Positions 21,823-53,908 of a stretch of DNA of 64,000 nt are shown here, piece by piece. The stretch is from Candidatus Omnitrophota bacterium (lineage in GTDB: Bacteria > Omnitrophota > Gorgyraeia > Zapsychrales > Zapsychraceae). The translations under genes were made by a program, and so were the position numbers. The notes under the pieces were generated by a model, which was given only the letters and a program-made list of their open reading frames with translations, was not told where the DNA came from and made no database searches. Position 1 is the first letter of the stretch. Every line of letters begins with the position of its first letter. Location of the stretch: the NCBI GenBank assembly GCA_018062515.1, contig JAGOSC010000005.1:880-64879 (forward strand). The letters are read 5' to 3'.

Positions 21823-21851
21823 TTGACAATGGATCGACTTTAATGTATACT
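21823..21851 (+). promoter_or_regulatory. Sigma70-type promoter for the giant-gene operon
   Basis: TTGACA (21823-21828), 17-nt spacer, TATACT (21846-21851). It lies ~170 nt upstream of the ORF A ATG in the only sizeable intergenic gap before the 30-kb cluster. Confidence 0.6.
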
Positions 21852-22018: not shown

Positions 22019-23090
22019 ATGATGATTTTTAAAAGAAATAAAAGAAATTTAACCCGAAAAATAACTTCCACCTTTGTCTTATTTTCATTTATTTTCTCAT
22101 CAATACTACCTCCTCAAGTCTCGGCGCAGAGCGTATTCCATTTACCTATACCTGGGACCCTGTTTAATGTTACAAATACCTTTAATCCTTTTATCATTCA
22201 AGGGCTTACTGTAGATCCGCAAAATCCTCTTCATTTCAGTTTTATTATTGACACCGGCGACACGCAAACAAACGATCCAGACGCTTTCCGCTTAGAATCT
22301 ACAAAACTAGTCAAATATTTCTTAGCATCCTTAACCGTTCCCGAAGATCAAATGTGGGTTAACCTTTCTCCGTATGAAGGCAACCGCATTATTTCGGACA
22401 CATTTGGTCAAACCGAAATGGGCCGTGACTTATTAGCTCAAGATTATATTCTCAAACAAATGTCGGCTTCTTTAACGTATTCAGAAGAAGAATTGGGTGA
22501 AAAATTTTGGCACAGGGTCCACCAACGCGCAAAAAAAGAATACGGCGTTAAAGATATTCCTTTAAATACTTTTAATAAAGTATGGATCATTCCTCAGAAG
22601 GCAACCGTTTATGAACATGACGGCAGCGCGTATGTCGTCAATAGCCGGTTAAAAGTAATGATGGAAGAAGATTACTTAGCCTTAAACAAAAATATCGGTG
22701 AGCAAGCTTTTGGTATGAATAATGTCAAGCAAGATGAGGCGGAATCCACGAGTAAAGTTACTTCCGCCATCATTAAAGAAATTATTATCCCGGAACTCGA
22801 GAAAGAAGTGAATGAAGGCAGCCATTTTGCCAATTTGCGTCAAATTTATCAGTCGATGATTTTAGCGACCTGGTACAAAGTGAATTTAAAAGAATCACTT
22901 TTAGGAAAAGTTTATATTGATCAAAATAAAGTCCAAGGAATTGATTTAAACGACAAAAACGCGAATCAGAAAATTTATGAACAATATTTAGCCGCCTTTA
23001 AAAAAGGTGTTTACAACTATATTAAGGAAGACTACGATTCAGCCACTCATAAGTCAACACCTCGTCAATATTTCGCCGGCGGATTTGTTC
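22019..23090 (+). other. Leader plus shared N-terminal module, copy A (unknown family)
   Basis: MMIFKRNKRNLTRKITSTFVLFSFIFSSILPPQVSA|QS, then LPIPGTLFNV...GLTVDPQNPLHFSFIIDTGD...FLASLTVPEDQMWVNLSPYE...FGQTEMGRDLLAQDYILKQ...NLRQIYQSMILATWYK...AFKKGVYNYIKEDYD...PRQYFAGGF. Colinear with the same region of ORFs B, C and D. Confidence 0.85.
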
Positions 23091-26000
23091 CAAAAACCGA
23101 AGATAATGCGACTTTAGCAGAATTGATCACACGAGAGAAGACCACTCGTTTAGCCGCTACGGATCAGGCAGCTTTAACTCCGAAAGGAAACCAGATTCGA
23201 GCTGATTTCGCTTTATTAGAAGACTTAACCGATGAAGATGCTCCAAAGGTACAAAAACCGATTGAAAAAATTGAAGACGCGCAGATAGCTGTGGACCCTA
23301 ATTGGGTTGAGGACTATTTGGAAAATCTTTTCCCTGAAAACAGCTTTCCTAAACCAGTCAAACAAGAACCAGTCATTATCAGCAAAGAAAGAAAAGAATT
23401 AGAAGACGAATTAATCGCCAATCGTTCTCAATTCTCGGGCTCTAGAATAAATCGGAATATTAAGGAAAAAACAGGGCTTGACGTTCCCGAGGACACTGTC
23501 GATTATTTCGTCGAGCATAGTGGAACCCTCCCTGGATTAAATCACCGTGCTGACCGTTCCCAGGTTATAGGGCAACTTATCCGCAATCATCGTCCTTATG
23601 AAATCTCTAAATTATTTGCCTTATCAGAATCCAAAAATTTTGAAAGAAAATATTATCCTGCCTGGATCCAAGCTTTATCAAAAATATTTACTTTTTTGAA
23701 AGATAAAAATTCAACCATTAATACAGAATTAACCGTTCAAGTCAATTTAGACGGAATTCTTTTAATTAAAGACGGCTCGGGAGAAGAACTCAAGGCGTTT
23801 CAGAAATTGGATCAATTGCACACGGAAAAAGCTTCCGTCGGTGCACTGGCCCTTCAAATTGTCAAATTATTAACCCATGATTACGACGGTTTGGAACTCA
23901 CCAACACTAAAGAATTGTCAGATGATTTAGTATCCATCTTTAATATTTTCGGAATCAAGCCGACGGTGATTAATGATGCGTGGATGCAAACTGTCCTGGG
24001 ATACGGAGATTCTTCATTAAATCTTCAAGCTCTAAAAGAAGGCGTTGAAGTAACTGAAGCTGATGTCGACACTTATCTTTTCCGTCTGGACACAGAAAAA
24101 AGTTTAGCTCGTCAAGCCGGAGAGACTGTATATCTTTCTACGCGCTCAGAAGCCGTCGCTGAAATGATTAAAGAAAATAAATATGATTCTGCTCTTTTAG
24201 CCTCCATCGATGAAAAGGCTTTAACACCGGAAATTCTTACTGCTTTTGGCGGAAATGTAACGGCCGCACAAACGGTCGTGGCCGAGCGTCTTGAGGCTAT
24301 GCGCGTCGCTGATCCGAATGCCACCGTCGAGCAAGCTGTCGCCCGTTTAGCTTGGGAATATAAGCCGCGCGATATTCAAAACGTTTTTCCTGGAGACAAC
24401 TGGAAATTTATGTTTTTGGCCGCCAAAGCCGGCATGAAAGCTCCGATTCTTTTATTAGACTTGGAAGACGCAGTTGCGACAACTCGTAAAGAAATTGCCC
24501 GCGGTGTTATCGTACAATTGATCCGGGCTTTTAAAGGTGAAGGATTAACACAAGATGAATTTGATTTCTTGCAGAAGAACGCGCTTCAGGCTGATGATGA
24601 AAAATATCCGATGACTAGTTTCTTTACACAAAGTCTTGTCGACGGAAAAACTGTTTATACGTTAAATCCTGAAAATCAATTCCATAAAGATCAAATGGTT
24701 CTTTTCCGCCCGAATAATTTAAGAACAAAGTGGTCGGCAGGGGATTATTCTCAAGTTTTTCGTAAAGTCGGTCATTTGGTAGACGGTATTTATATGCCTA
24801 AAGTAGAAGGCCCAGAAGATATCAAAATCGGCGCGTCTATTTTACGCGCCATTCAGAAAGAACAAAACTGGGTCGTTGGTCGTCACAAAATTTTTGTTTT
24901 AACCGAACTTCCCGGCGCTGTTTTGACCGCTGAAAATATTTTAAAAATAGCTCCTGAAGTTGAAGAAGTTCAATTAGGAGTCGTCGATTACACCGCAGCG
25001 ACGGGTGGAAAAAATCAAGTTCAAATCGAACAATTTCCATTTATGCGTTATGCCTTATTACGCTTGGTTGAAGCCGCTAATAATATAGGGAAATCCGCCG
25101 GTTTAGGTATTACCGTTCAATTTACTCCAGAAGCAACAGCCGAGGATACAGTCAAGGCTATTAATATTGGCCTTCATCGCAAATGGAGCGTTCATCCAGC
25201 GCATTTGAAAGGCATGGAATCATTCATCGGAAAATTCCCAAAGATTGTCCGAAAAGATATTCAATATGATGAACTACAAGGATTTGATTTGGTACAGCTA
25301 GATCAATACGCTAGTGAAAGCCGTCCAATTTTAGCTCCTAAAGTTTTAACACCTAAAGATGTGGTTTTATCCAGAGCTGTGGTCACTGTTTCATCCGGAA
25401 ATATTGATGGGCTTAAAAAAGCTCTGGATTCAAATGCTGATACTATTATTTTGGATTTCGGGAAAAAAGAAAATTTGTCTGAAATTAAAAAAATATTAGT
25501 TCAGGCTAAAACAACAAAGAGTATTCTTGTTGTCGATGAGCTTGATTCCCTACAATCAATTAAACAAATTGTAACTGAGTTAAATGGATATTTTCAAGGA
25601 TTTAACCTGAATAACATACAGAATGCATCAACAGTAAGAGATGTGGATGGATTGTTATCAGAAGCAGAAAGTGATTTGGGATTAAACGCAGGCAGCTTAA
25701 AAATTGCCGTCAGCTTTAATGACCCGCAAGTGGTCGAGGAGCAATCCCGCTATCTCGGCACCGATCCAGCTAAAGCTCTTTTGTATTCCAGTCAACGCCT
25801 CAGCTGGGCCATCTTGAATTTGCCTACCATGCCGACTGAAGATTTAGATGATCCGGAAACGAGAGGATACAATTATTATCATTCTTTATTTATTGCCATG
25901 ACCGCTCATGCCGAAGTCGATTCCATCGACGGTTATAGCGCGGATGAGAATTTAACAGAACAAGTTGCGACCTCAGCCATTTGGGGATTTCAAGGAAAAC

Positions 26001-29000
26001 TAGCTAACTTGAATCAAGTTGATGAAATTACTGAAGCCATGAGCCCGCAGCGAGCTGGAATTATGCCAGAATTTTCTACTCCAGAGGAACGTAAAGCTTG
26101 GTTAGCTACTGCCGAAGGAAAAATTTATGTAGCACGTTGGAAAAATTCATTAGAACGAGATTTGGAACTGATGGATCTGTATGCCGAAGCGGATCAAGAA
26201 CGGCAATTAGGTGCGGTAGGTTATAAGGATCCTTTAACCGGCGCTATTGAAATCGTCGACGCTGCTTCAGCTCGAATTCCATTCCGACAATTAGAAAAAG
26301 CTTTAAAGACAAATCAATTAACCGATACGGAAAAAGTTCGATATGCAAAATCACGAGAAAAATTACTTTTAGCCATGCGTCCAGGCGGACGAGAAGGCAG
26401 CGGTGAAAAAGTTTTTGCCGGGCAAAAAATTACAGCTCCGGCCATTGTGATGCGTCCTTGGATGGTTAATGCGTTTGCTAAAGATGGCGATCAAAACCGT
26501 TATCATTTAGATGAAGCTTATGCCAACGCCTCAAAATTTAAAGGATTAGTTGCTCATGGATTATTGACGGTAACTAAGGCTTTAAGTTCTTTAAAAGCTC
26601 AATTACCGGCTTATAAAATTGAAGAAGTCGACGACGCTAAATTCTTAGCTCCTGTACGCTTTAATGATACGATTACCCCGGTCATTGATGTTACGAGTGT
26701 CGACAATGAAAAAGCCAATGTAAAAATTAGTGTAATCAATCAAGACGGAAAAACAGTCAGTGAAATCAAAGTTTTATTAATAGAAAGCACTGATTCTCAA
26801 ATCATTCCAAAAATTAATAATGATTCTTTAAAATCAGCAGAAAAGGTGCCGGCTTCTATTCCGGCCGTCATTTACGATTTTACTGATCCACAAAGTCCTC
26901 GAGAACAAACGTTCAAGCAGGAAATCACATCCAGTTATTTAGAAAATGTTCAAGGATCTAATTTGATTACAAGCCGGGATTTATTAAGTCAATTAGCTGC
27001 CTTTAAAATGATGGCCGGTACTTCCGCCAATGCCGTCCCAGGCCACATATTATTGAATGCAACAAATGTAAAATTCGGAGCTGAAATTCATTTAGGTGAT
27101 GTATTGACCGCCAAAGCTACTGTTCCTGCAGCTGATCAAATTAAATTGACTAAAGACAATCTTCCTAAAGTTCCAGTCACGATTGAAATCACGAATCAAA
27201 ATGGAGAAATGGTTTTAAAAGGACAAGTATTAAAACTCATGGAACCGGGTAAAGATCGAGCGATGCTGGCCAAAAAACCATACCTTCTGCCAAGAGGAAA
27301 AATTGTTACATCGCCGGATGAACTTCCAACACATATGGAAGCATATGTAGTCCGACGCGGTGAGCATGGTGACCCAATTGATGCGTTTAAAAAATCCATT
27401 CAACCCGTTCCCGATGTGGGCGATTATGAAGTCCTTGTCCAAGTTATGGCTGGAGGATTAAATTTTAATGGAACATGGGCCCTTCAAGGTCTTCCCATTT
27501 CTCCATTTACTTATCCTTTGAATAAATTCCACGATGAACAACGCTTAGGTAGTGATGCTTCAGGCATTGTTGTGGCCGTTGGCAAACATGTCACACAATA
27601 TAAAATTGGTGATCAGGTTGTTATGGCTACCGGTGAAGATGACCGCGCTGAAAAAGATCCTGATCATGGCGATACCATGCAAAAACGAACGTTTGTTATC
27701 ACCGGGTATGAAACTCCGGATGGAACGTTCGGTCAATTTGTCGCTTTGGATGAACGTCAAGTACATCCGAAAGAGGCAAATATGACTTGGGAACAAGCCG
27801 CCAGTTATCATTTAGTCGCCGACACAGCTTGGCGAGATATGAAATACAAACTGGGTGTTAAAAAGGGAGATACTGTATTAATCTGGGGGGCATCAACAGG
27901 AGTAGGAGCTTTTAATGTCCAGATCGCTAAATATTTAGGAGCCAAGAATATTGTGGCGGTTGTTTCCAGTGCTTCAAGAGCGGAACAAGCCAGAAAATTC
28001 GGGGCCACTCAAGTGATTAATCGAACTGAACTTCCTAAAATTTTGGGATACAGTGATGCTGAAATTTGGGGTGAACTCTCTAACAATCCCCAAAAGCAGC
28101 AAAAACAAATTGAAATGTTAAATAAGTTCAGAGAATATTTTCTTTCTCTAACGGGTGGTGAATTAGCCGATGCCGTTGCGGAACAAATCGGCCAAACAAC
28201 TTATCCAATTAGTCAATATTTAGCTAAAGATTCCGGAAAAGTCACTCATTTTGCCGGAACATTTGGTTTCAAATTTACCTTTATGGGAAAAGATTTACCG
28301 TTGGATGAGAATACAAAAAAGCAAAAAACGCCACTTCAAATGTTAGAAGAAGCTGGTGTACGCGACGCTAAACGAGTGCTGATATATGGTGCTGATCAAC
28401 TTTCTAAAGAAATTTTTGAGGAAGTTAAAAAATACAGCACTAATATTGCTTTCATCGTTAAAAGCCAAGAAGAACAAAATACAGTCGAAAACTGGGATTT
28501 AGAAAAGACATATATCAAAGGTATTGTAGATTTAAATCCGATTTCTTTTCCTGAAGATATGCCTACACCTCCTCATCCAGACATCCCGGCAGATAAACAG
28601 GCAAAAAATCTTGAAGAATTTAATGAGTATCGTATCAAAGTACTGGATCCAATCCGAGGATCGGTTGTAAAAGCTTTAGGCGGTCAGCCCGACTTAATTG
28701 TTGAAAGAGCGGGGAACAAAAATACTTTGGATATCAGCGTATTTGTCGTGCGTCCTCATGGCGTCGTAACATATGTTGAATCAACAAAAGGAAAACGTTT
28801 AGTCTTTGATGCCCGATTTATTTGGATGTTCCAAAAGCAAATTTATCCTTGGGTTCTTGGGACTCATTATGCGAACCACACACAAACCAAGGAATTAAAT
28901 GATTTAGTTTTAAAAGGCATCATAAGCGTACCTGAACCCGAAGTATTTTCTTGGGATGAATTACCCTTAGCCCAGCAGAAAATGTATGAAAATAAATTAA

Positions 29001-29941
29001 TCGCAACCAAAGCGTCTGTTCTTATCGGAGCTGTTAAACCAGGACTGAAAGGTCTGCCCGAAGAAACTGCGGCAGAACTGCCCATAAAAAACGAAGAGGG
29101 ATTGCTTCCGGCTTTCATGATTACCTCAAAAATCATAGAACCCACCATTTCTGATAATCAAATCAATCTTTATAAGAATCCGGCCATTGATCTATCTGAG
29201 AAATTCGCAATATTAGCTGCTAAATCAAAATTTAAAGACCCAAATAGCGCCCTAGGAATGTATGCCTTGGAAACAAAGGCATTTATACCTGCCATTGTTG
29301 AAAAAGTTTTCGGGAACACGGCGGAATTAGGGGAATTTAAATTAAAGGGGTTTACATCATTTGCTCCTAGCGGATTAGATGCTAATGATCAAATTCGAAC
29401 GACATTGCAAGTAAGCCGCAATTTTAAGATCGACGGGGATGATGTATACCTTAATGCCCGTATATCTTTGGATAAATTTTTTGTCGATTCCGGAAAATGG
29501 AAAGAGTTGTTGGTCGGAAATCAAATACTAAAAATGCCAATTAACGACTTAAACTCTTTAGGTTTTTACTTACCGTCTGAAAAAATTGACTCCGCTTTGA
29601 TTGGAGAAAAAAACGATGTTAGCCTGAATAATAATATCGCTGAATCCAAAAAAGAATACGGCGGTATTGACTTTAATTCAAAATTTTTGAATCTTCAGAT
29701 CAAGCGTGATGGACGAGGAATTCCATTGCCGGTGAATCAGCAGCCATTGATGAACATTCACATCAATGGATTTTATCCGGTTCTCATTGAAACAATGCCG
29801 ATTAATTTACCATTGATTCTCGGTTTAGAGACGGAAGAAGAAGATTCGAATTCAAGAACTCAACAAAGTTCACTTGATCCTTTGCATAAACAAGAAGACA
29901 TACGTATCGAAGATTTAGAAACAGCCAGCATACTAAACTAA
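22019..29941 (+). CDS. Giant fusion protein A (2640 aa): leader + shared N module + 2x CitE/HpcH-like lyase + 2x MaoC hot-dog + crotonyl-CoA carboxylase/reductase-like MDR + shared C module
   Basis: Uninterrupted 7.9-kb ORF in AT-rich DNA. GAGGAA lies 8 nt upstream of the ATG. Domain motifs are listed in the sub-features. Confidence 0.9.
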   Translation: MMIFKRNKRNLTRKITSTFVLFSFIFSSILPPQVSAQSVFHLPIPGTLFNVTNTFNPFIIQGLTVDPQNPLHFSFIIDTGDTQTNDPDAFRLESTKLVKYFLASLTVPEDQMWVNLSPYEGNRIISDTFGQTEMGRDLLAQDYILKQMSASLTYSEEELGEKFWHRVHQRAKKEYGVKDIPLNTFNKVWIIPQKATVYEHDGSAYVVNSRLKVMMEEDYLALNKNIGEQAFGMNNVKQDEAESTSKVTSAIIKEIIIPELEKEVNEGSHFANLRQIYQSMILATWYKVNLKESLLGKVYIDQNKVQGIDLNDKNANQKIYEQYLAAFKKGVYNYIKEDYDSATHKSTPRQYFAGGFVPKTEDNATLAELITREKTTRLAATDQAALTPKGNQIRADFALLEDLTDEDAPKVQKPIEKIEDAQIAVDPNWVEDYLENLFPENSFPKPVKQEPVIISKERKELEDELIANRSQFSGSRINRNIKEKTGLDVPEDTVDYFVEHSGTLPGLNHRADRSQVIGQLIRNHRPYEISKLFALSESKNFERKYYPAWIQALSKIFTFLKDKNSTINTELTVQVNLDGILLIKDGSGEELKAFQKLDQLHTEKASVGALALQIVKLLTHDYDGLELTNTKELSDDLVSIFNIFGIKPTVINDAWMQTVLGYGDSSLNLQALKEGVEVTEADVDTYLFRLDTEKSLARQAGETVYLSTRSEAVAEMIKENKYDSALLASIDEKALTPEILTAFGGNVTAAQTVVAERLEAMRVADPNATVEQAVARLAWEYKPRDIQNVFPGDNWKFMFLAAKAGMKAPILLLDLEDAVATTRKEIARGVIVQLIRAFKGEGLTQDEFDFLQKNALQADDEKYPMTSFFTQSLVDGKTVYTLNPENQFHKDQMVLFRPNNLRTKWSAGDYSQVFRKVGHLVDGIYMPKVEGPEDIKIGASILRAIQKEQNWVVGRHKIFVLTELPGAVLTAENILKIAPEVEEVQLGVVDYTAATGGKNQVQIEQFPFMRYALLRLVEAANNIGKSAGLGITVQFTPEATAEDTVKAINIGLHRKWSVHPAHLKGMESFIGKFPKIVRKDIQYDELQGFDLVQLDQYASESRPILAPKVLTPKDVVLSRAVVTVSSGNIDGLKKALDSNADTIILDFGKKENLSEIKKILVQAKTTKSILVVDELDSLQSIKQIVTELNGYFQGFNLNNIQNASTVRDVDGLLSEAESDLGLNAGSLKIAVSFNDPQVVEEQSRYLGTDPAKALLYSSQRLSWAILNLPTMPTEDLDDPETRGYNYYHSLFIAMTAHAEVDSIDGYSADENLTEQVATSAIWGFQGKLANLNQVDEITEAMSPQRAGIMPEFSTPEERKAWLATAEGKIYVARWKNSLERDLELMDLYAEADQERQLGAVGYKDPLTGAIEIVDAASARIPFRQLEKALKTNQLTDTEKVRYAKSREKLLLAMRPGGREGSGEKVFAGQKITAPAIVMRPWMVNAFAKDGDQNRYHLDEAYANASKFKGLVAHGLLTVTKALSSLKAQLPAYKIEEVDDAKFLAPVRFNDTITPVIDVTSVDNEKANVKISVINQDGKTVSEIKVLLIESTDSQIIPKINNDSLKSAEKVPASIPAVIYDFTDPQSPREQTFKQEITSSYLENVQGSNLITSRDLLSQLAAFKMMAGTSANAVPGHILLNATNVKFGAEIHLGDVLTAKATVPAADQIKLTKDNLPKVPVTIEITNQNGEMVLKGQVLKLMEPGKDRAMLAKKPYLLPRGKIVTSPDELPTHMEAYVVRRGEHGDPIDAFKKSIQPVPDVGDYEVLVQVMAGGLNFNGTWALQGLPISPFTYPLNKFHDEQRLGSDASGIVVAVGKHVTQYKIGDQVVMATGEDDRAEKDPDHGDTMQKRTFVITGYETPDGTFGQFVALDERQVHPKEANMTWEQAASYHLVADTAWRDMKYKLGVKKGDTVLIWGASTGVGAFNVQIAKYLGAKNIVAVVSSASRAEQARKFGATQVINRTELPKILGYSDAEIWGELSNNPQKQQKQIEMLNKFREYFLSLTGGELADAVAEQIGQTTYPISQYLAKDSGKVTHFAGTFGFKFTFMGKDLPLDENTKKQKTPLQMLEEAGVRDAKRVLIYGADQLSKEIFEEVKKYSTNIAFIVKSQEEQNTVENWDLEKTYIKGIVDLNPISFPEDMPTPPHPDIPADKQAKNLEEFNEYRIKVLDPIRGSVVKALGGQPDLIVERAGNKNTLDISVFVVRPHGVVTYVESTKGKRLVFDARFIWMFQKQIYPWVLGTHYANHTQTKELNDLVLKGIISVPEPEVFSWDELPLAQQKMYENKLIATKASVLIGAVKPGLKGLPEETAAELPIKNEEGLLPAFMITSKIIEPTISDNQINLYKNPAIDLSEKFAILAAKSKFKDPNSALGMYALETKAFIPAIVEKVFGNTAELGEFKLKGFTSFAPSGLDANDQIRTTLQVSRNFKIDGDDVYLNARISLDKFFVDSGKWKELLVGNQILKMPINDLNSLGFYLPSEKIDSALIGEKNDVSLNNNIAESKKEYGGIDFNSKFLNLQIKRDGRGIPLPVNQQPLMNIHINGFYPVLIETMPINLPLILGLETEEEDSNSRTQQSSLDPLHKQEDIRIEDLETASILN
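24360..25230 (+). other. CitE/HpcH-family (malyl-CoA lyase / citrate lyase beta-like) domain 1
   Basis: APILLLDLEDAVA, LFRPNNL, IYMPKVEGPEDI, IFVLTELPGAV, LGVVDYTAATGG, WSVHPAHL. This is colinear with CitE-family motifs from memory. Boundaries are approximate. Confidence 0.6.
25350..26060 (+). other. Second, degenerate CitE-like domain
   Basis: SRAVVTVSSGNIDGLKKALDSNADTIILDFGKKEN, where the DLEDAV-type motif is replaced, and later IWGFQGKLANLNQVDEITEAMSP (compare GF.GK..IHP.QV). Boundaries are approximate. Confidence 0.45.
26400..27240 (+). other. Tandem MaoC-like hot-dog (enoyl-CoA hydratase/dehydratase) domains
   Basis: DGDQNRYHLDEAYANASKFKGLVAHGLLT is the MaoC signature D.NP.H.D...A....F...IAHG. 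A second hot-dog-like half follows (...GHILLNATNVKFGAEIHLGDVLTAKATV). Confidence 0.65.
27330..29040 (+). other. Crotonyl-CoA carboxylase/reductase-like medium-chain reductase domain with an internal insertion
   Basis: EVLVQVMAGGLNFNGTWAL, LGSDASGIVVAVGKHVTQYKIGDQVV, ETPDGTFGQFVALDERQVHPK, GDTVLIWGASTGVGAFNVQIAKYLGAKNIVAVVSSASRAEQARKFGA. All are colinear with Ccr-type sequences as I remember them. It is ~120 aa longer than stand-alone Ccr. Confidence 0.65.
29657..29835 (+). other. Shared C-terminal module, copy A
   Basis: YGGIDFNSKFLNLQIKRDGRGIPLPVNQQPLMNIHINGFYPVLIETMPINLPLILGLE, followed by a polar/acidic ~35-aa tail. Confidence 0.85.
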
Positions 29942-29957: not shown

Positions 29958-31000
29958 GTGATTAATCAATTTAAGAAGTTTCAGCCACGATTTGCTTATA
30001 AATTATTCTGTGCGGTCATCAATGTTGCGTTTATTTCAACTTCGGTTCTCCCACCGAGTTATGCTCAGGTTTTACCAACCGCATTTGCATTACCGCAACC
30101 CGGGGCAATGGTTAACCTAACGGAGAAGTTTATGCCGGTCATCGTGCGCGGCATAACCATTCATCCTGAAAATCCGCTTATGTTTGATTTTATGGTGGAT
30201 CAAGGCGACACAACTCTTGATGCGACCGCCCTCAAAAACGAATCGTTAAAACTAATTAAATACTTTCTCGCTTCCTTGACCATTCCAGAAAAGGAAATGT
30301 GGGTCAATCTTTCTCCGACGGAAAAAGATAGAATTATTCCTGATTCGTTTGGAGAAACCGAAATGGGACGGGATCTCTTAGCCCAAGATTATGTTCTCAA
30401 ACAGTTGACGGCCTCTTTGATGTATCCGGAAAAAGAATTAGGCCAAAAATTCTGGCAGCGCGTCCGTGAACGGGCGAAATCCGAATATGGTCTAACAGAT
30501 ATTCCGATGGATACATTTAATAAGGTATGGATTGTGCCTAAATCAGCGGTTGTTTTTGAAGGTAAAAATTCTGCCTTTGTCGTTGAGAGTGAGTTGGACG
30601 TCATGCTTGAAGAAGAGTATTCCCAGTTAGATGGTGTCATCCAGGCTCAAGGTTCCTCGTCGATAAAAAGTAGTTCAGCAAAAGAAATTATTAAAGAAGT
30701 CATTTTACCGGAAATCAAAAAAGAAGTTAACACGGGAGAGACTTTTGCGAATTTGCGTCAGATTTATAATTCCATGATCTTGGCTTCCTGGTATAAAGAT
30801 AATTTAAAAAAGAGTCTTTTAGGACAAGTATACGTCGATCAGAATAAAATACGCGGCATTGATGTTGAGGATAAAAATGTCAAACTAAAGATTTACGACC
30901 AATATATGAAGGCCTTTAAAAAAGGTGTTTACAACTATATAAGAGAAGATTATGACTCAGCATCTAAGAAAATGGTTCCGAGAAGATATTTTTCCGGTGG
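29958..31000 (+). other. Leader plus shared N-terminal module, copy B
   Basis: ..INVAFISTSVLPPSYA|QV, LPQPGAMVNL..GITIHPENPLMFDFMVDQGD..FLASLTIPEKEMWVNLSPTE..FGETEMGRDLLAQDYVLKQ..NLRQIYNSMILASWYK..AFKKGVYNYIREDYD..PRRYFSGG. Confidence 0.85.
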
Positions 31001-34000
31001 GGAAACATTTACAAATTTAAAAATCACTCGCCAGGATATAGATGATTCCGGGATGCTAAGCGCTTCACAAAAAGATGCAATGAATCCGGGTAATACCGAC
31101 GTCATTGTGACAGTAGCGTTAGCTGACTTTGGAAGCAATGTCGATACGACAACTTTAAAACAAGCCGCAAAAGAACTCAATGAAGATCAATCCATGGTTG
31201 GCGAAAATCCTGAGAATAAAAAGGGAATAACCGGAGGATTTTTAACGGACGGCAATTTGGTTGTATATGATAATCCTAAAATTGTCCTTTATCCGGAAAA
31301 TGTTAAAGATCATCCTGATGTCGACACAATGTATCAAATGTTTGAATCCATCTTGGGTCAAAATTCTGAAATTGTACAATCAGTGGGTGAAAGGATTGAC
31401 ACGAAAGAAATTCACGTCGAAGAACCATATGAAGTTACCGTTAACGGGAAAAATGAATCACGAGAAAGTTTAATTAAACAATTAGGCGGTTTAGGTCTTT
31501 TAGGCATGTCGGTACCGGCTGAATATCGAACCGTTGAACTCGGTGGTGATGGTAAAAAGGCCTTCCCTAAAATTGTTAAATCATTGGCGGATAAATGGGC
31601 ATGGTATGGGAACGCGTCTATTGGATCGCTGGTGCGTGTTCATGGCGGCGTGTCTACATTTCCAATTTTAATTTACGGAACGGAAGAACAAAAGAAAAAA
31701 TATTTGCCAAAATTAGCCTCGGGAGAAATGATCGGCGCTTATGCGTTGACGGAATCGAATCATGGGTCTGATACTCTTAATCAGGAAACTGTATTTGATA
31801 CCACCGGGGTTATCGTCGAGCAAGATGGCAAAAAGTATGTAAAAATAAATGGTTCAAAACAATATATTACCAATACACGTTTTGCGGATATTTTCACCGT
31901 GTTTGTGTCTGTCCAAAATCCTGAATGGAATAAGGATCAACCAGACGCAGCCCCACAATGGTTAAAAAGCGTTTTTGTCGTTGAGAAGAAAGATTCCACA
32001 CCGGATACTTTTTCATTTGGACCCGAAATGGAAAAAATTGGGCTTCCCGGATCTGCGACCCAAGAAATATTTTTTAATGATTTACTGATACCGATGGACA
32101 ACCTTTTAGGCAAATTAGGCCAAGGCGATAAAATCGGCATGAGTATTCTTAATTATGGACGATTAGCGATTGGCGCCGGATCTTTAGGCGGAAGCCAACG
32201 TATTCTCGATGAGAGTATACGCTGGATCCTTACTCGTCAGCAATTCGGACATCCCTTGGCCGACTTTAGCGCTGTTCAAACCAATATCGCCGAAATGGAA
32301 GCGAATATTTATGCGATGGAAGCCTTGGTTTATGCCGTCAGCGCGTTATTAGATAACAATGAAGCACCGGGGTTAGAAGCATCAATAGCCAAGGTCTGGG
32401 GGTCCAACACATTTCAGAAAATTGCCCAGATGGGTGTCAATCTGCGTGATGATGAAGGTTTTCTCAAATCAACGCATGTTAACCGCATACTCGGTGATTC
32501 CGTTGTCATGTCTATTTTTGAAGGGGCGAATGAAGTTCTTTCGTCACAGGTCATCGCCGCTTTATCCATGAAATACTTAGACAAAAAAGATAAATTATTA
32601 GGCAGCTGGACAATCCCTCAAGATAGCCCTGTTTACGACGAGAGTTTGCATATAAAACAGGCTGCCGAAACAATTATGCAAGCCAAGGATAAATTGATTA
32701 AAACCTACGGAACGACGTCGGTCTTGCGGGAGCGCGGGAAAGAACATCTTCAAGAATATTTTAATGCATTTGGATTAATGATCGCCGATCTGTACGTATT
32801 AGTGAATACGCTTAATCGAACACATCATTTGCTTTTGTCAAATCCTCAATCACAACATGAAAGGAATTTAGCTAAATTGGTTGTTGAAGAAGGTATTCGT
32901 CGAATCGAAAGCAATGCCGGGCTCATCTTGACTCAGGATGAAATTAAACTAGTTAATCTGGGTACCGAAAGCCCTGTGGAGCTCAAAATACAAGTAGCAA
33001 AACATATTTTAGAGAATAATAAATTTATGACGTGGACCCCTGCGACAGCCACCGACGAAGAAATAGTGAGTACGGAAGGCGCAAAACCGGTATCAACATT
33101 CCTCTTTAGTGGTCAAAAAGGTGAATACCCGGAATCAGCTTTACCATTTATGGAAGATAATGAGCAGTTTGCTGAAGGCCCGATGTACGAAGGTCTTAAA
33201 GAAATTTTCGCGGATATGGTCGTTTCTAAACAGATTAATAAAAATTTGGATGAAGGCCATTTAAAACTCACGCAGATTTGGGACGAACTGAAAGAATTAG
33301 GCCTTTTTGATCCGGAATACTCTACCATTGTAAAAAATTGGGTGAATCAATTTGCGGCATATGCCAGCCCGTCGCTAGGACTTACTTTAGCCGTTCATAA
33401 CGGCGTAGGTTCTATGCCCATTAAACTTTTTGGAAGTGATGCGCAGAAGGAAAAATATTTACCGCTATTTAACTCTGGTGAAAATATCGCGGCCATGGCC
33501 ATCACGGAAAAAGAGCATAACTCAGATATTTATTCTGACAATACGGTATTAGAAACGACCGCCACGCCCATCACCGACGAGAATGGAACGATTGTTTCTT
33601 ACCAAATCAAGGGTTCAAAAGATTATGTGATTAATGCGAGTGACAACAGCATATATATTATCTTAGCTTCGGTTTTGAATGAATCACAAGGAAAACAAAA
33701 ATCTTTATTTATCGTCGAGCATAACGATACTGGAAAAATTTCGGTCACAGAACAAAAAAATAAAATGGGTTTGAGATCAGCTATGACCGCGGTTGTTGAT
33801 TTTAATATCACCGTTCCGGCAGACCGCATGATCGGTGAGGCGGATCAAAGCGATATGATCAACCAAAACATTCAAGGTTATACGTGGACTGCTTTGGGTT
33901 CCATTTATTTAGGCGCCAGTGACATTGCGTTTAAAGAAACTTTAAAGTACGTAACTCAGCGCAAACAATTTTCCTACAAAAAAGATAATGTTTTAAAAAG

Positions 34001-35141
34001 AAAATTCATCGCGGATTTCGGTGCCGTACAAATATCCTTAGCCAACTCAGAAGCCATGTTATACGCCTTGGAATCGATGGTCTATGCTGTCAATGCAGAA
34101 TTTGATAGCGGCCGTAATCCCGTTTTTGAATCAGCTATTTTGAAAGTGATCGGGACAAACACATTCCAGGATATTGCCCGTCAAGGTGTGCAAAAACACG
34201 GCGGCATGGGTTTCGGGCGGGAAACGGAAGTCGCTAAATATTTCGAAGATTCCATCGCACTCGCGCAGATTGGCGGATCAAATAATGTCCTATTAGGTGT
34301 TGTTATCGGCCCCTTGGGATTAACGGCTTTAAAAGAAAATTCCGGCCTGAGCATTTTGGAAAACTGGAATATTCCGGAAGGCCCGTTGACGGATGATGTC
34401 CTTAGAATAAAAGTAGCCGCTAAAACTATTTTGAATATGGTGAGTGAATTTGAAAAACGCGGCATTACGAAAAATAACCCTTCCGCCAGTATATATTTTC
34501 ACCTGCTTGGAGAAATGTTTGTCCAACTCTATGTGATGACCACGACGGTGAACCGCACTCAACATCGTTTAGATAAGGGCATGGATTCTGCGCATGAAAT
34601 TGGTTTAACAAAAACCATTGTCATTGACGGGATACAAAAAATACAAAAATTAGCGCAAGAATTACGTATTTCTGCGCCATCCACGCCATCCCTAAACAGT
34701 GATCAATTGGTGGCCTTGAAAACAGAAATCGCGGAATCAACATTAGAACGCACGACCGATTGGGAAAAACCACAAACAGAAAAAGATATAGCCATGGTGG
34801 CAGAAACCGAAGATCCATACTTGATGAATAAAGCAGATCTCAATACACCGTCGACAAAAGATAAGGTAGGGGGTATTAATTTAGACCGTTCCTTACTGAA
34901 TATGCAAATCCTCCGGGATGAGGGCGGTGTTCCTCTTCCGCTCGACGATCAACCGCTTTTGGAAATGAATATCGAAGGGTTTATTCCGGTGATCATTCAA
35001 ATTACACCGGCTCTAAATGTGCCTTTATTGTTGGGGTTAGCCGGTGAAAAGAAAGATTCAAATTCAAACAGCCAACGCGGTTCGCTAGACCCTTTGCAAA
35101 AAAAAGAGCATATGCTTGTAGAATATGAGGAACGCAGCTAA
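29958..35141 (+). CDS. Giant fusion protein B (1727 aa): leader + shared N module + two acyl-CoA dehydrogenase units + shared C module
   Basis: GTG start 16 nt after the ORF A stop, preceded by AGGGA. 5.2-kb open frame. Motifs are in the sub-features. Confidence 0.88.
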   Translation: MINQFKKFQPRFAYKLFCAVINVAFISTSVLPPSYAQVLPTAFALPQPGAMVNLTEKFMPVIVRGITIHPENPLMFDFMVDQGDTTLDATALKNESLKLIKYFLASLTIPEKEMWVNLSPTEKDRIIPDSFGETEMGRDLLAQDYVLKQLTASLMYPEKELGQKFWQRVRERAKSEYGLTDIPMDTFNKVWIVPKSAVVFEGKNSAFVVESELDVMLEEEYSQLDGVIQAQGSSSIKSSSAKEIIKEVILPEIKKEVNTGETFANLRQIYNSMILASWYKDNLKKSLLGQVYVDQNKIRGIDVEDKNVKLKIYDQYMKAFKKGVYNYIREDYDSASKKMVPRRYFSGGETFTNLKITRQDIDDSGMLSASQKDAMNPGNTDVIVTVALADFGSNVDTTTLKQAAKELNEDQSMVGENPENKKGITGGFLTDGNLVVYDNPKIVLYPENVKDHPDVDTMYQMFESILGQNSEIVQSVGERIDTKEIHVEEPYEVTVNGKNESRESLIKQLGGLGLLGMSVPAEYRTVELGGDGKKAFPKIVKSLADKWAWYGNASIGSLVRVHGGVSTFPILIYGTEEQKKKYLPKLASGEMIGAYALTESNHGSDTLNQETVFDTTGVIVEQDGKKYVKINGSKQYITNTRFADIFTVFVSVQNPEWNKDQPDAAPQWLKSVFVVEKKDSTPDTFSFGPEMEKIGLPGSATQEIFFNDLLIPMDNLLGKLGQGDKIGMSILNYGRLAIGAGSLGGSQRILDESIRWILTRQQFGHPLADFSAVQTNIAEMEANIYAMEALVYAVSALLDNNEAPGLEASIAKVWGSNTFQKIAQMGVNLRDDEGFLKSTHVNRILGDSVVMSIFEGANEVLSSQVIAALSMKYLDKKDKLLGSWTIPQDSPVYDESLHIKQAAETIMQAKDKLIKTYGTTSVLRERGKEHLQEYFNAFGLMIADLYVLVNTLNRTHHLLLSNPQSQHERNLAKLVVEEGIRRIESNAGLILTQDEIKLVNLGTESPVELKIQVAKHILENNKFMTWTPATATDEEIVSTEGAKPVSTFLFSGQKGEYPESALPFMEDNEQFAEGPMYEGLKEIFADMVVSKQINKNLDEGHLKLTQIWDELKELGLFDPEYSTIVKNWVNQFAAYASPSLGLTLAVHNGVGSMPIKLFGSDAQKEKYLPLFNSGENIAAMAITEKEHNSDIYSDNTVLETTATPITDENGTIVSYQIKGSKDYVINASDNSIYIILASVLNESQGKQKSLFIVEHNDTGKISVTEQKNKMGLRSAMTAVVDFNITVPADRMIGEADQSDMINQNIQGYTWTALGSIYLGASDIAFKETLKYVTQRKQFSYKKDNVLKRKFIADFGAVQISLANSEAMLYALESMVYAVNAEFDSGRNPVFESAILKVIGTNTFQDIARQGVQKHGGMGFGRETEVAKYFEDSIALAQIGGSNNVLLGVVIGPLGLTALKENSGLSILENWNIPEGPLTDDVLRIKVAAKTILNMVSEFEKRGITKNNPSASIYFHLLGEMFVQLYVMTTTVNRTQHRLDKGMDSAHEIGLTKTIVIDGIQKIQKLAQELRISAPSTPSLNSDQLVALKTEIAESTLERTTDWEKPQTEKDIAMVAETEDPYLMNKADLNTPSTKDKVGGINLDRSLLNMQILRDEGGVPLPLDDQPLLEMNIEGFIPVIIQITPALNVPLLLGLAGEKKDSNSNSQRGSLDPLQKKEHMLVEYEERS
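31330..32580 (+). other. Acyl-CoA dehydrogenase domain 1
   Basis: LGLLGMSVPAEY, GAYALTESNHGSD, INGSKQYITN, RQQFGHPLADF, IFEGANEV (the Y-E-G-T-type position keeps the Glu). Boundaries are approximate. Confidence 0.7.
33200..34330 (+). other. Acyl-CoA dehydrogenase domain 2 (divergent)
   Basis: ELGLFDPEYS, AAMAITEKEHNSD, IKGSKDYVINA, RKQFSY. The C-terminal motif reads AQIGGSNNV, where ACADs of the MCAD type have Y-E-G-T. Confidence 0.6.
34866..35045 (+). other. Shared C-terminal module, copy B
   Basis: VGGINLDRSLLNMQILRDEGGVPLPLDDQPLLEMNIEGFIPVIIQITPALNVPLLLGLAGE, followed by a polar tail. Confidence 0.85.
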
Positions 35142-36200
35142 GTGATTATTCAGTTTAAAAAATTCCAGTTAAAATTTACCTATAAATTTCTTTGTACGGT
35201 TATCAATATTGCGTTTATCTCGACTTGTGTTCTACCGCCGAGCTATGCTCAGGTTTTATCTTTACCCCAACCTGGAACCATGCTGAATGTAAGCCCGGTT
35301 TATACTCCGCCCATGATCAAAGGACTGACCATTGATCAAGAAAACCCGCTGCATTTTCAATTTATTATTGATACTGGAAATGAACAATATAAAGATAATG
35401 ATCAGCTTCGAGAAGAATCAACACGCTTAATTAAATATTTCCTTGCTTCGTTAACAGTTCCTGAAAATGAAATGTGGGTGAACCTTTCACCCCATGAAAA
35501 AGACCGCATTATTCCCGACGGGTTCGGCCAAACCGAAATGGGCCGTGACCTTTTAGCCCAGGATTATATTTTAAAACAACTCACCGCGTCATTGATTTAT
35601 CCTGAAAAAGAATTAGGGGCTGAGTTTTGGAAAAAAGTGCATGACCGCGCTTGGAAAGAATTTAAAACAAAAGAAATTCCATTGGATACATTTAATAAGG
35701 TTTGGATTGTTCCGGAAAAAGCAGTGATTTATGAACATGAAAGAAGCGCTTATGTTCTGGAAAGTCATTTAAAGGTCATGTTGGAAGAAGATTATCAAGC
35801 ACTTATATCCAATACTTCGTCGACATCCGCGGACAATCAAAAATTAAAAGATGATAATCGGCAACTGACAGCGTCGATCATGAAAGAAATTATTATTCCG
35901 GAAATCGAACGGGAAGTTAATGAAGGTAAAAATTTCACAAATCTACGCCAAATTTACCAGTCGATGATTTTAGCGACGTGGTACAAGATGAACTTAAAAG
36001 AGTCATTACTTGGACAAATTTACGTCGATCAGAATAAACTCATAGGGATTGATCTCGACGATAAGAATGTTAAAGACAAAATTTACGCGCAGTATATAGA
36101 AGCCTTTAAAAAAGGTGTTTATAACTATATCAAAGAAGATTATGATCCTGACCAGCAAAAGACCGTTCCTCGTCAATACATTTCGGGCGGTTTCTCGACG
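35142..36200 (+). other. Leader plus shared N-terminal module, copy C
   Basis: ..INIAFISTCVLPPSYA|QV, LPQPGTMLNV..GLTIDQENPLHFQFIIDTGN..FLASLTVPENEMWVNLSPHE..FGQTEMGRDLLAQDYILKQ..NLRQIYQSMILATWYK..AFKKGVYNYIKEDYD..PRQYISGGF. Confidence 0.85.
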
Positions 36201-45566: not shown

Positions 45567-46600
45567 ATGAAAAAGAAAATTTTCCTTATGAAAAAGTTTG
45601 TGTCTATATTAATTCTTTGCGCATTTACAATGAACACCATTGTTCCGCCGAGTTTGGCGCAGAGCATATCGTCAACGATCCTACCGCCGGTAGGTTCAAT
45701 GCTAACCATGACACCATCGTTTGTTCCGATACAAATCAAGGGTCTAACCATCGATCCCGAAAATCCTTTGCATTTTGAATTTATCATCGATACCGGCGAT
45801 TCAAAAATTGTAAACGATGAAGAATTGCGCGCCGAAACAACAAAACTGGTTAAATATTTTCTTACATCGCTGACCGTTCCGGAAGAAGATATGTGGGTCA
45901 ATCTTTCTCCTTATGAAGGAAATCGTATTGTTACCGACGGATTCGGACAAACGCAAATGGGTCAGGATCTCTTAGCGCAAGATTATATTCTAAAACAAAT
46001 CACCGCATCATTAATGTTCCCTGAAAAAGAGTTGGGCAAAAAGTTCTGGGATAAAATTTATCAGAGAGCAGAACAAGAATACGGAACTAAAGATATTCCA
46101 ACGAATACATTTAATAAAGTATGGATCATTCCGGAAAAAGCCACGGTTTATGAGCATGACGGCAGTGTTTTTGTTATCGAAAGCCGTTTAAAGGTTTTAT
46201 TGGAAGAAGATTATTTTGCCCAAAGAAAATCTGAAGGAGCCTCCGTCGATCCAAATAAATCTGTGTATACCGACATCGTTCGAGAAATTTTAATTCCGGA
46301 GATTGAAAAAGAAGTCAATGAAGGACAGCATTTTGCCAAACTGCGTCAAATTTATAATGCGATGATCTTAGCGACTTGGTATAAAACCAATCTGCAAAAA
46401 TCCGTCTTAGGACAAATTTATGTTGATCAAAATAAGTTGGAAGGCATTAACGGCGAGAATAAAAACGCTAAGTCAGATATTTATAATCAATATCTCAAGG
46501 CTTTTAAGGCCGGCGTTTATAACTATATTAAAGAAGACTATGATTCGACAACTCGGTCAACGATTCCCCGACAGTACTTCTCCGGTGGATTTGCCGCTAC
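45567..46600 (+). other. Leader plus shared N-terminal module, copy D
   Basis: MKKKIFLMKKFVSILILCAFTMNTIVPPSLA|QS, LPPVGSMLTM..GLTIDPENPLHFEFIIDTGD..FLTSLTVPEEDMWVNLSPYE..FGQTQMGQDLLAQDYILKQ..KLRQIYNAMILATWYK..AFKAGVYNYIKEDYD..PRQYFSGGF. Confidence 0.85.
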
Positions 46601-53840: not shown

Positions 53841-53869
53841 TTGACGATGTGTACAATATCAATTATATT
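53841..53869 (+). promoter_or_regulatory. Candidate sigma70 promoter for the serpin gene
   Basis: TTGACG (53841-53846), 17-nt spacer, TATATT (53864-53869). This argues against the GTG 53849 start given in the ORF track. Confidence 0.4.
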
Positions 53870-53908
53870 ATTTACACATATCCACGGTCTAAACGCTTAA
53901 AAAAATTC

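Follow-up and report, generated by a model that had tools for sequence, protein, structure and literature searches.

A putative ethylmalonyl-CoA-like module on four giant proteins of a Candidatus Omnitrophota bacterium, one of which joins lyase, hydratase and carboxylase/reductase-type domains

The 64,000-nucleotide stretch of DNA analysed here (the window) belongs to a Candidatus Omnitrophota bacterium (GTDB lineage Bacteria; Omnitrophota; Gorgyraeia; Zapsychrales; Zapsychraceae) and covers positions 880 to 64,879 of contig JAGOSC010000005.1 in the GenBank assembly GCA_018062515.1. It harbors an operon of four giant genes on the same strand, the open reading frames (ORFs) A, B, C and D, which are separated by gaps of 16, 0 and 6 nt. 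ORF A carries on one polypeptide a lyase of the malyl-CoA lyase (Mcl) type, a degenerate second copy of that lyase, two MaoC-type hot-dog folds and a reductase of the enoyl-CoA carboxylase/reductase (ECR) family. We propose, with a probability of about 0.5, that ORF A together with ORFs B-D forms the core of an ethylmalonyl-CoA-like module. The predicted role of ORF A is that of a CoA-ester multi-enzyme protein, assembled from two ready-made cassettes that are set between an N-terminal and a C-terminal module (N-module and C-module) of Omnitrophota. The coordinates of all features are collected in Table 1.

The ORF A product is 100% identical to NCBI entry MBP9853540.1 from a Candidatus Omnitrophota metagenome-assembled genome (MAG), which is automatically annotated as a 'zinc-binding dehydrogenase' and lies on a contig of 64,894 bp. 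A preliminary description of the window, which concerned positions 24360-29040 (aa 781-2340 of ORF A), had listed in order a CitE/Mcl-like barrel, a degenerate copy, two hot-dogs and a reductase on one polypeptide, and this order was confirmed by Pfam, NCBIfam, profile-profile comparison and AlphaFold, with domain matches far beyond chance. The Pfam matches comprise HpcH_HpaI/CitE (PF03328) at aa 878-1025 (57.4 bits; cut-off 25), MaoC at aa 1468-1567 (43.4 bits; cut-off 27), ADH_N (PF08240) at aa 1802-1918 (46 bits) and ADH_zinc_N (PF00107) at aa 1961-2079 (61.8 bits), the last two also exceeding their cut-offs. A polyketide synthase was considered, given giant ORFs with dehydratase and enoyl reductase domains, and rejected: Pfam finds no KS, AT or ACP domain in them, only CoA-ester enzymes.

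The first barrel of cassette 1 is the presumed catalytic lyase. Searched as a single sequence, its best solved relatives were all malyl-CoA/beta-methylmalyl-CoA lyases, with a weak score of 35 bits. The family profile gave 86.4 bits to the Methylorubrum extorquens Mcl (5ugr), 74.7 bits to the Rhodobacter sphaeroides Mcl1 (4l9y) and 45.5 bits to the Chloroflexus MCLC (4l7z), versus at most 39.5 bits to CitE-type chains. Residues R897, E963 and D990 align with R76, E141 and D168 of Mcl (5ugr), and the DLEDAV motif is kept at D814-V819. Characterized Mcl enzymes, more than citrate lyase beta or CLYBL, are thus the nearer kin of the domain that had been called CitE/malyl-CoA-lyase-like, and its residues for metal and substrate binding are intact. 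We name it Mcl-type and not a proven Mcl, because it fails the one Mcl equivalog model that matched (NF041626; score 32.9 bits, cut-off 500); the matches listed include no bacterial Mcl model. Compared with the solved Mcl1 enzymes (5ugr, 4l9y, 4l80), which are its best structural relatives and share the DLEDAV motif, the arginine and the Glu/Asp metal ligands, the ORF A barrel is a distant match, has an insertion of ~55 aa after the first strand, and carries the degenerate second barrel in place of the C-terminal lid of Mcl.

This second barrel is recognizable as a lyase copy by profile-profile comparison of aa 781-1095 with aa 1096-1450 (probability 96.4%, E 1.3e-9, 214 aligned columns). In it the DLEDAV motif has become ILDFGKKE and PKVEG has become NNIQN, and one stand-alone homologue of cassette 1 has two PF03328 matches, all of which bears out the earlier remark on a degenerate copy with its DLEDAV-type motif lost. 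The second barrel is probably an inactive duplicate that acts as a built-in partner subunit of the lyase. The two MaoC hot-dog folds of the preliminary description also hold, the first by Pfam and the second by its relation to the first (88% probability in hhalign) and by the structure model. AlphaFold modelled aa 781-1760 with confidence from an alignment of 32 sequences (pLDDT 84.8, pTM 0.86). The model comprises two beta/alpha barrels followed by a helical connector and a double hot-dog, and its fold matches in the PDB are malyl-CoA lyases and double hot-dog hydratases.

Cassette 1 exists as a protein of its own. About 44 of the 60 matches to aa 781-1760 cover 98% or more of this region, mostly at 44-50% identity, and are proteins of ~1,010 aa; most of the remaining matches (41-46% identity, 58-68% coverage) lack the MaoC part and are proteins of ~720-760 aa. 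The similarity runs ~50 aa further upstream, to about aa 727. In species-representative genomes the ~1,010-aa family is found mostly in Methylomirabilota (NC10). Its members, from Methylomirabilota, Anaerolineae and Nitrospinota, have the same four domains (CitE-CitE'-MaoC-hot-dog), colinear with ORF A over 98% of aa 781-1760, and differ from ORF A in that they stand alone, without end modules or an ECR and usually without pathway neighbours. Since this family exists, the fusion of lyase, pseudolyase and hydratase predates ORF A. The preliminary description is thus upheld in that Mcl-type, hydratase and ECR domains sit on one polypeptide; the joining of lyase and hydratase is not new here, since the stand-alone family has it at 44-50% identity. 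Its statement that three non-consecutive steps were combined has to be corrected: the steps of mesaconyl-CoA hydratase (Mch) and Mcl are consecutive in the ethylmalonyl-CoA pathway, and only that of crotonyl-CoA carboxylase/reductase (Ccr) is non-adjacent.

The reductase of cassette 2 had been said to track Ccr and not generic alcohol dehydrogenases. Its placement in the Ccr/ECR family stands; it is not a canonical Ccr, having a score below the model cut-off and an insertion of ~175 aa. The best NCBIfam model is TIGR01751, crotonyl-CoA carboxylase/reductase, at 341.7 bits, and the next model scores ~260 bits less (81.6). The best PDB match is the M. extorquens Ccr (4gi2; 246 bits), aligned in two stretches ~175 residues apart. 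The CO2 pocket of ECRs consists of N81, F170 (or Y), E171 and H365 in KsCcr (PMC6628652). The alignment of the CO2-binding residues, proposed earlier as a check, gave N1817, Y1897, E1898 and H2283 of ORF A at the pocket positions of 4gi2, 6eqo and other Ccrs, so that all four are kept. With Ccr (4gi2, and 6owe from K. setae) the domain thus has in common the MDR fold, the best NCBIfam and PDB matches, the four pocket residues and the glycine-rich NADPH motif; Ccr is a stand-alone enzyme of ~420-450 aa without insertion, whereas the ORF A ECR is an insertion-bearing domain of a 2,640-aa protein.

Further enzymes of the predicted set, among them three acyl-CoA dehydrogenase domains, are carried by ORFs B-D. 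Long stretches of these ORFs have no domain assignment, for instance aa 950-1220 and 2360-2840 of ORF C and aa 1290-1800 of ORF D. The mutase of ORF C matches PF01642 with 492 bits. The first acyl-CoA dehydrogenase (ACAD) of ORF B is nearest to VLCAD-type enzymes, and that of ORF C to butyryl-CoA dehydrogenase. From the ethylmalonyl-CoA gene set the operon contains an ECR, a B12 mutase, ACADs, a MaoC hydratase and an Mcl-type lyase; neither an ACAD of the methylsuccinyl-CoA dehydrogenase (Mcd) type nor an epimerase was found in it. Near the C-terminus of ORF D (aa 1837-1917, window positions 51075-51320) there is a cyclic-nucleotide-binding domain, the presence of which suggests that the module may be under cyclic-nucleotide control.

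Similar enzyme sets recur in other genomes. In two Omnitrophota loci, giants with CitE and MaoC domains are paired with ACAD-mutase-B12 giants (L001) or with MeaB-mutase-B12-carboxyltransferase giants (L002), the latter locus also having neighbouring giants with ACPS, ligase, MAT, MaoC, CitE and ECH domains. An unclassified MAG (L018; CAYLXA010000009.1, 143-15673) encodes a single ORF of 5,176 aa without the Omnitrophota end modules, which combines an ECR, a B12 mutase, 3HCDH, a ligase (45% identical), cassette 1 (49%) and an ACAD (45%). In an Elusimicrobia MAG (L030; JACQJO010000058.1, 7406-20005), a 603-aa mutase and a 2,162-aa CitE-3HCDH-ECR-MaoC fusion are accompanied by a 552-aa ACAD with a full-length match to (2S)-methylsuccinyl-CoA dehydrogenase (8ciw; 532 bits, E 1e-158). 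By its sequence this match reads as the clearest signature of the ethylmalonyl-CoA pathway, and the locus is an apparent ethylmalonyl-CoA pathway cluster in Elusimicrobia. An unfused version (L031; GCA_023249225.1, JAHFDA010000004.1, 1-21776) consists of an ACAD, a 1,009-aa CitE-MaoC protein and a 591-aa stand-alone ECR of the insertion type, with a VOC-family gene of weak methylmalonyl-CoA-epimerase similarity directly 3' of the ECR; the neighbourhood further includes genes for a KAS III-like protein, an acyl-CoA synthetase (ligase) and a biotin carboxylase/BCCP. The same enzyme set thus appears to have been fused independently in Omnitrophota, in Elusimicrobia and in the third, unclassified MAG.

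We infer the following substrates and direction of reaction for the module. An acid would be activated and oxidized to an enoyl-CoA by ORF C, and this enoyl-CoA (crotonyl-CoA) would be reductively carboxylated by the ECR of ORF A in an NADPH-dependent reaction. The carbon skeleton would then be rearranged by the B12 mutase of ORF C, the product oxidized by an ACAD of ORF B or C and hydrated by the MaoC domain of ORF A, and finally the Mg-dependent lyase of ORF A would cleave it to glyoxylate and propionyl-CoA. By analogy with propionyl-CoA synthase (PCS), the fusion and the shared end modules may keep reactive enoyl-CoA intermediates near the next active site. PCS is reportedly a fusion of ligase, dehydratase and reductase that sequesters acrylyl-CoA.

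Several results weigh against an ethylmalonyl-CoA-like function. The ECR stays below the equivalog cut-off of TIGR01751 (341.7 against 378.55 bits), its match being split in two by the insertion. The ORF C mutase scores 520 bits in NCBIfam against the 876-bit cut-off of the methylmalonyl-CoA mutase equivalog, and the NCBIfam models did not discriminate among ethylmalonyl-, methylmalonyl- and isobutyryl-CoA subtypes. No Mcd-type ACAD was found in ORFs B and C, where Mcd structures reach only about 110 bits, no epimerase was detectable in ORFs A-D with the VOC protein of L031 as query, and the carboxyltransferase of ORF D has neither a biotin carboxylase nor a BCCP to go with it in the window. 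The hydratase, which had been likened to Mch, shares with Mch/MeaC (4e3e, 8hgn) the double hot-dog fold with one hydratase-2 motif, and is no more than a candidate Mch: sequence and profile searches of the PDB gave no match to these structures at E <= 0.01 and instead matched PhaJ-type (R)-specific enoyl-CoA hydratases, AF1124 and HTD2, while the fold search listed 4e3e and 8hgn amid many equally good double hot-dogs and did not discriminate. By its sequence neighbours the domain would be a generic (R)-hydratase, nearest to the PhaJ type; the label Mch comes only from its permanent fusion to the Mcl-type lyase. Most of the stand-alone cassette-1 genes of Methylomirabilota have no consistent pathway partners within 10 kb. 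The exact ORF A protein and its junction of cassette 1 with the ECR are known from one contig of one MAG. Finally, ORF A begins with a cleavable-looking signal peptide, which is hard to reconcile with needs for NADPH, CoA, ATP, FAD and B12.

The reductase itself raises the alternative that survives best, although we consider it unlikely. The MaoC domain and the ECR would form a pair like that of PCS, in which the former dehydrates a 3-hydroxyacyl-CoA (3-hydroxybutyryl- or 3-hydroxypropionyl-CoA) and the latter reduces the product without carboxylation in a shared chamber; the route would be fermentative or of the 3-hydroxypropionate type, and the lyase would serve a separate malyl- or citramalyl-CoA step. 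The second-best PDB match of the ECR is the PCS of Erythrobacter sp. NAP1 (6eqo; 195 bits), which aligns in a single stretch right through the insertion (query 28-564, 537 residues). The insertion lies between the AGTxG(F/Y) strand and the FDAR...W segment, is identical to 6eqo at 44 of 156 positions, and is also present in a protein designated P0180 and in the ECRs of L018 and L030, being absent from nine canonical Ccrs. Such reductases are rare. An exhaustive search of 1.84 billion cluster representatives with the ECR returned only 56 proteins at E <= 1e-30, and the insertion was spanned by about 20 of the best 150 matches. Most of the insertion-bearing ECRs examined are fused to (de)hydratases: P0323 (ECH-ligase-ECR, a permuted PCS), P0318 (ECR-ECH), P0421 (3HCDH-ECR-MaoC) and P0389, in which ECR-ECH is followed by two SDR domains in a malonyl-CoA-reductase-like combination; in P0302 and P0300 Pfam showed nothing beyond the ECR. 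The ECR matches also include proteins as long as PCS (~1,800 aa). One protein among the insertion-type fusions, P0319, is 6,910 aa long.

Cassette 2 (aa 1764-2520) has one close whole-length relative, P0180, which is encoded on a 2.2-kb contig and is 45% identical over 95%; the stand-alone P0300 (591 aa) matches its ECR only (43%). A catalytic MaoC domain directly precedes the ECR in ORF A, and one directly follows it in P0180, another likeness to a dehydratase-reductase pair. P0180 ends in a MaoC domain (hhalign 95.8%; PF01575) that has the catalytic motif GDDNPVH, and aa 2346-2515 of ORF A align to this domain with an E-value of 2e-10, having YKNPAID at this place. A direct profile match of this region to MaoC was not significant, and the link is transitive, through P0180. 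The ~200 aa before the C-module, which the preliminary description had left blank, are therefore probably a decayed third hot-dog.

The remaining features shared with PCS are an ECR fused beside a (de)hydratase and the kept CO2-pocket residues, and ORF C would supply the missing ligase together with a Bcd-like ACAD. There are differences, too. PCS has a crotonase-fold dehydratase where ORF A has a MaoC hot-dog, ORF A adds the lyase block, and the PCS layout of ligase, dehydratase and reductase on one polypeptide is absent, with the AMP-forming ligase on ORF C and the rest on ORF A. The ECR core is nearer to M. extorquens Ccr (39.7% identity) than to PCS (30.3%), and the residue after the pocket asparagine is Gly, as in M. 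extorquens Ccr, and not the Asp of PCS. These last two features and the complete CO2 pocket speak against reduction without carboxylation. So does the stand-alone family, where MaoC is permanently joined to the lyase and not to an ECR, and so does the homologous Elusimicrobia cluster with its bona fide methylsuccinyl-CoA dehydrogenase, an enzyme that needs a carboxylating ECR upstream. The ORF A ECR appears to be a member of a rare, insertion-bearing and dehydratase-coupled ECR branch with an intact carboxylase pocket.

The ends of ORF A concern the location of the proposed ethylmalonyl-CoA-like module. ORFs A-D are exactly the four genes of the window with N- and C-modules; the C-modules are 36-55% identical among them, that of ORF A reading GGIDFN...LPLILGL. 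Neither Pfam nor NCBIfam gave a match at E <= 1 for the N-module, the spacer, the second barrel or the C-terminal region, and no sorting-signal model of these databases matched the C-module. The structure model of the N-module is mediocre (pLDDT 63), and Foldseek found no PDB match for it at E <= 0.001. The spacer (aa 426-726) has no homologue among about 450 proteins compared, including the closest relative of ORF A, P0002, where cassette 1 follows the N-module with hardly any sequence between them. The interval of aa ~357-780 that the preliminary description could not assign is accordingly divided among the N-module (aa 1-425), the orphan spacer (aa 426-726) and the start of cassette 1 (aa 727-780), of which the first two remain without a family match.

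When the whole protein was used as query, more than 100 proteins of 1.5-4.4 kaa were matched, in the N-module only, and those with an organism name are all from Omnitrophota, except two that come from a hydrothermal-vent metagenome. At least 119 relatives share both end modules: in all 119 that were checked, the start of the N-module falls among the first ~100 residues, and no more than 69 residues separate the end of the C-module from the C-terminus. According to precomputed Pfam annotation, the cargo between them includes phosphoglycerate kinase, enolase, glucose-6-phosphate isomerase, phosphoglucomutase, UTP-glucose-1-phosphate uridylyltransferase, isocitrate lyase, malate synthase, PEPCK, GAPDH, TPI, response regulators and HEAT repeats. 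No description of this end-module architecture was found in the literature searched, and it is what puzzles us most about the system. The two modules could be a phylum-specific targeting or assembly system by which whole pathways are mounted on one scaffold or placed outside the cytoplasm (for example at the envelope or at a host contact site), and ORF A could then be a subunit of a naturally tethered carbon-assimilation metabolon in a nanobacterium that may depend on a host; we regard this as quite unlikely.

Quite improbable, too, is the alternative that ORF A is exported and its enzymes act at an extracytoplasmic site (the periplasm, the cell surface, or the inside or outside of a host cell), or serve as a non-catalytic scaffold, which would void the cytoplasmic pathway logic. 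NADPH, CoA thioesters, FAD, ATP and adenosylcobalamin, which the enzymes need, are not available outside cells. The kept catalytic and cofactor-binding residues likewise argue for active enzymes, and the signal peptide was read from the sequence alone, at the head of a module without a fold match. On the other side, the Sec-type signal-peptide-like N-terminus with its VSA-Q site is conserved, and ORFs A-D have no internal transmembrane-type hydrophobic segments. Omnitrophota have been proposed to be host-dependent in the part of the main phylum paper considered here (PMC10066038). Two preprints on giant proteins of the phylum, in the passages considered here, report mostly signal-peptide or membrane topologies, note sugar-metabolism domains that are predicted to be extracellular, and discuss the same location paradox (bioRxiv 10.64898/2026.06.07.730766; 10.1101/2023.11.21.568195). 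As they are described in these passages, those giants resemble ORFs A-D in the phylum and in carrying many metabolic domains on one signal-peptide-bearing polypeptide, and differ from them in size (10,000 aa and above in one preprint, Archaeovorin-class proteins of tens of thousands of residues in the other), in their many transmembrane helices and in their mostly sugar-metabolism domains. The same passages of the two preprints and of PMC10066038 make no mention of the N-/C-module architecture or of the CoA-ester set.

Within cassette 1, the pairing of a CitE-type lyase with a MaoC hydratase is also used in itaconate degradation, and ORF A might accordingly act in the catabolism of C5-dicarboxylates (itaconate, mesaconate, citramalate), an alternative we find highly doubtful. 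The hot-dog would hydrate itaconyl- or mesaconyl-C4-CoA to citramalyl-CoA, the barrel would cleave this to pyruvate and acetyl-CoA, and the ECR would be an accessory reductase. It agrees with such a route that RipC/Ccl models gave weak NCBIfam matches (32.5 bits) beside that of Mcl (32.9 bits) and that the second barrel, by its family profile, aligns best with CLYBL, citrate-lyase-beta and acyl-CoA lyase beta chains. The catalytic barrel, however, is nearest to Mcl (86 and 75 bits versus no more than 40 for CitE or CLYBL), Pfam finds no CoA-transferase among the ORFs of the operon, and such a route would not explain why other lineages repeatedly combine these domains with an ECR, a B12 mutase and Mcd.

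That an assembly or gene-calling artefact has joined separate genes into ORF A is extremely improbable: the origin of the exact protein from one contig of one MAG is in keeping with it, but the 7,923 nt of ORF A are uninterrupted and uniform in composition, exactly one N-module and one C-module are placed as in all 119 relatives, P0002 on an independent contig has the layout of N-module, cassette 1 and C-module at 58-60% identity, and the same domains appear to be fused independently in L030 and L018.

The genes around the giant operon are ordinary chromosomal ones, among them homoserine dehydrogenase, threonine synthase, aspartate kinase and ValRS, and an Rfam scan of the window found three tRNAs only. 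Just downstream of the operon, at 53849-55177, a full-length serpin (PF00079, 425 bits) is encoded, preceded by a TPR protein and a SAM-dependent methyltransferase; serpins are uncommon in bacteria. At 59502-61166, next to a PIG-L family deacetylase and a TPR protein, an HTTM domain is combined with a vitamin-K-dependent gamma-carboxylase lumenal domain in one protein. The stretch at 100-2086 contains an ORF6N-domain protein, a tyrosine integrase and a tRNA, has a G+C content of 0.33 compared with about 0.41 elsewhere, and is probably the edge of an integrated element.

Table 1. Coordinates of the features of ORF A and of the giant-protein operon in the window
Feature	Position	Strand	Details
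Sigma-70-like promoter match	21823..21851	+	TTGACA-17-TATACT, 11/12; ~170 nt 5' of ORF A; consensus match only
ORF A, 2,640 aa	22019..29941	+	uninterrupted ORF
Sec-type signal-peptide-like N-terminus of ORF A	22019..22129	+	basic n-region, 16-aa hydrophobic core, PPQVSA-Q; read from sequence; conserved across family
N-module of ORF A, aa 1-425	22019..23293	+	50-57% identity with ORFs B, C, D
Orphan spacer, aa 426-726	23294..24196	+	no family match
Cargo cassette 1, aa 727-1745	24197..27253	+	colinear with ~1,010-aa stand-alone 'aldolase/citrate lyase family protein'
CitE/Mcl-type TIM barrel, presumed catalytic	24359..25303	+	D814-L-E816-D817-A-V, R897, E963, D990, KWSVHP at 1055
Degenerate second CitE-like barrel	25304..26368	+	ILDFGKKE at 1144; NNIQNAS at 1198 in place of PKVEG
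MaoC hot-dog	26381..26818	+	hydratase-2 motif GDQNRYH intact (aa 1490-1496); Pfam, motif
Second hot-dog without hydratase motif	26861..27253	+	double hot-dog with first; profile-profile, AlphaFold
ECR domain, aa 1764-2345	27308..29053	+	N1817, Y1897, E1898, H2283, GASTGVG at 1957-1963
~175-aa insertion inside ECR, aa 2088-2261	28280..28801	+	homologous to PCS (6eqo) insertion
Probable degenerate third hot-dog, aa 2346-2515	29054..29563	+	transitive homology via P0180
C-module of ORF A, aa 2520-2640	29576..29938	+	GGIDFN...GFYPVLIETMPINLPLILGL and acidic tail; common to ORFs B, C, D
ORF B, 1,727 aa	29958..35141	+	N-module, two ACAD domains, C-module
ORF C, 3,472 aa	35142..45560	+	N-module, AMP-forming acyl-CoA synthetase, butyryl-CoA-dehydrogenase-like ACAD, B12 acyl-CoA mutase, B12-binding domain, C-module
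ORF D, 2,173 aa	45567..52088	+	N-module, AccA-like and AccD-like carboxyltransferase, cyclic-nucleotide-binding domain, C-module
N-modules of ORFs B, C, D	29958-31250, 35142-36430, 45567-46850	+	shared ~400-aa module
C-modules of ORFs B, C, D	34785-35138, 45285-45557, 51732-52085	+	shared ~100-aa GGID...LPLLLGL module

The enzyme families of ORFs A-D are known, and an insertion-type ECR fused to a dehydratase is known from PCS. Literature searches turned up no natural Mcl-Mch(-Ccr) fusion and no Mcl-type lyase block on one polypeptide with a CO2-competent ECR, no ethylmalonyl-CoA pathway reported in Omnitrophota, Elusimicrobia or Methylomirabilis, and neither a distribution of an ethylmalonyl-CoA-like set over four end-module-bearing giants nor its recurrence in Elusimicrobia or another lineage. 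ECRs are, to our knowledge, the fastest known CO2-fixing enzymes, and they form the core of synthetic cycles such as CETCH. An ECR covalently linked to a hydratase and a malyl-CoA-type lyase would be a natural, ready-made design for substrate channelling, and ORF A would carry the PCS principle, in which a dehydratase is joined to an insertion-bearing ECR, over to another pathway. The set is of clear interest for work on CO2-fixing reductases and C2 assimilation.

The independent fusions may be read as Rosetta-stone evidence for a route of the ethylmalonyl-CoA type in these phyla, which would also give a role to the ~1,010-aa, mostly Methylomirabilota family. If the proposed function is true, a CO2-fixing ethylmalonyl-CoA-like module is carried by four co-transcribed giants whose relatives bear other cargo of the glycolytic, gluconeogenic and glyoxylate-shunt type. 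The bracketing of cytoplasmic-type enzymes between the same end modules in all 119 relatives bears on how Omnitrophota organize their metabolism.

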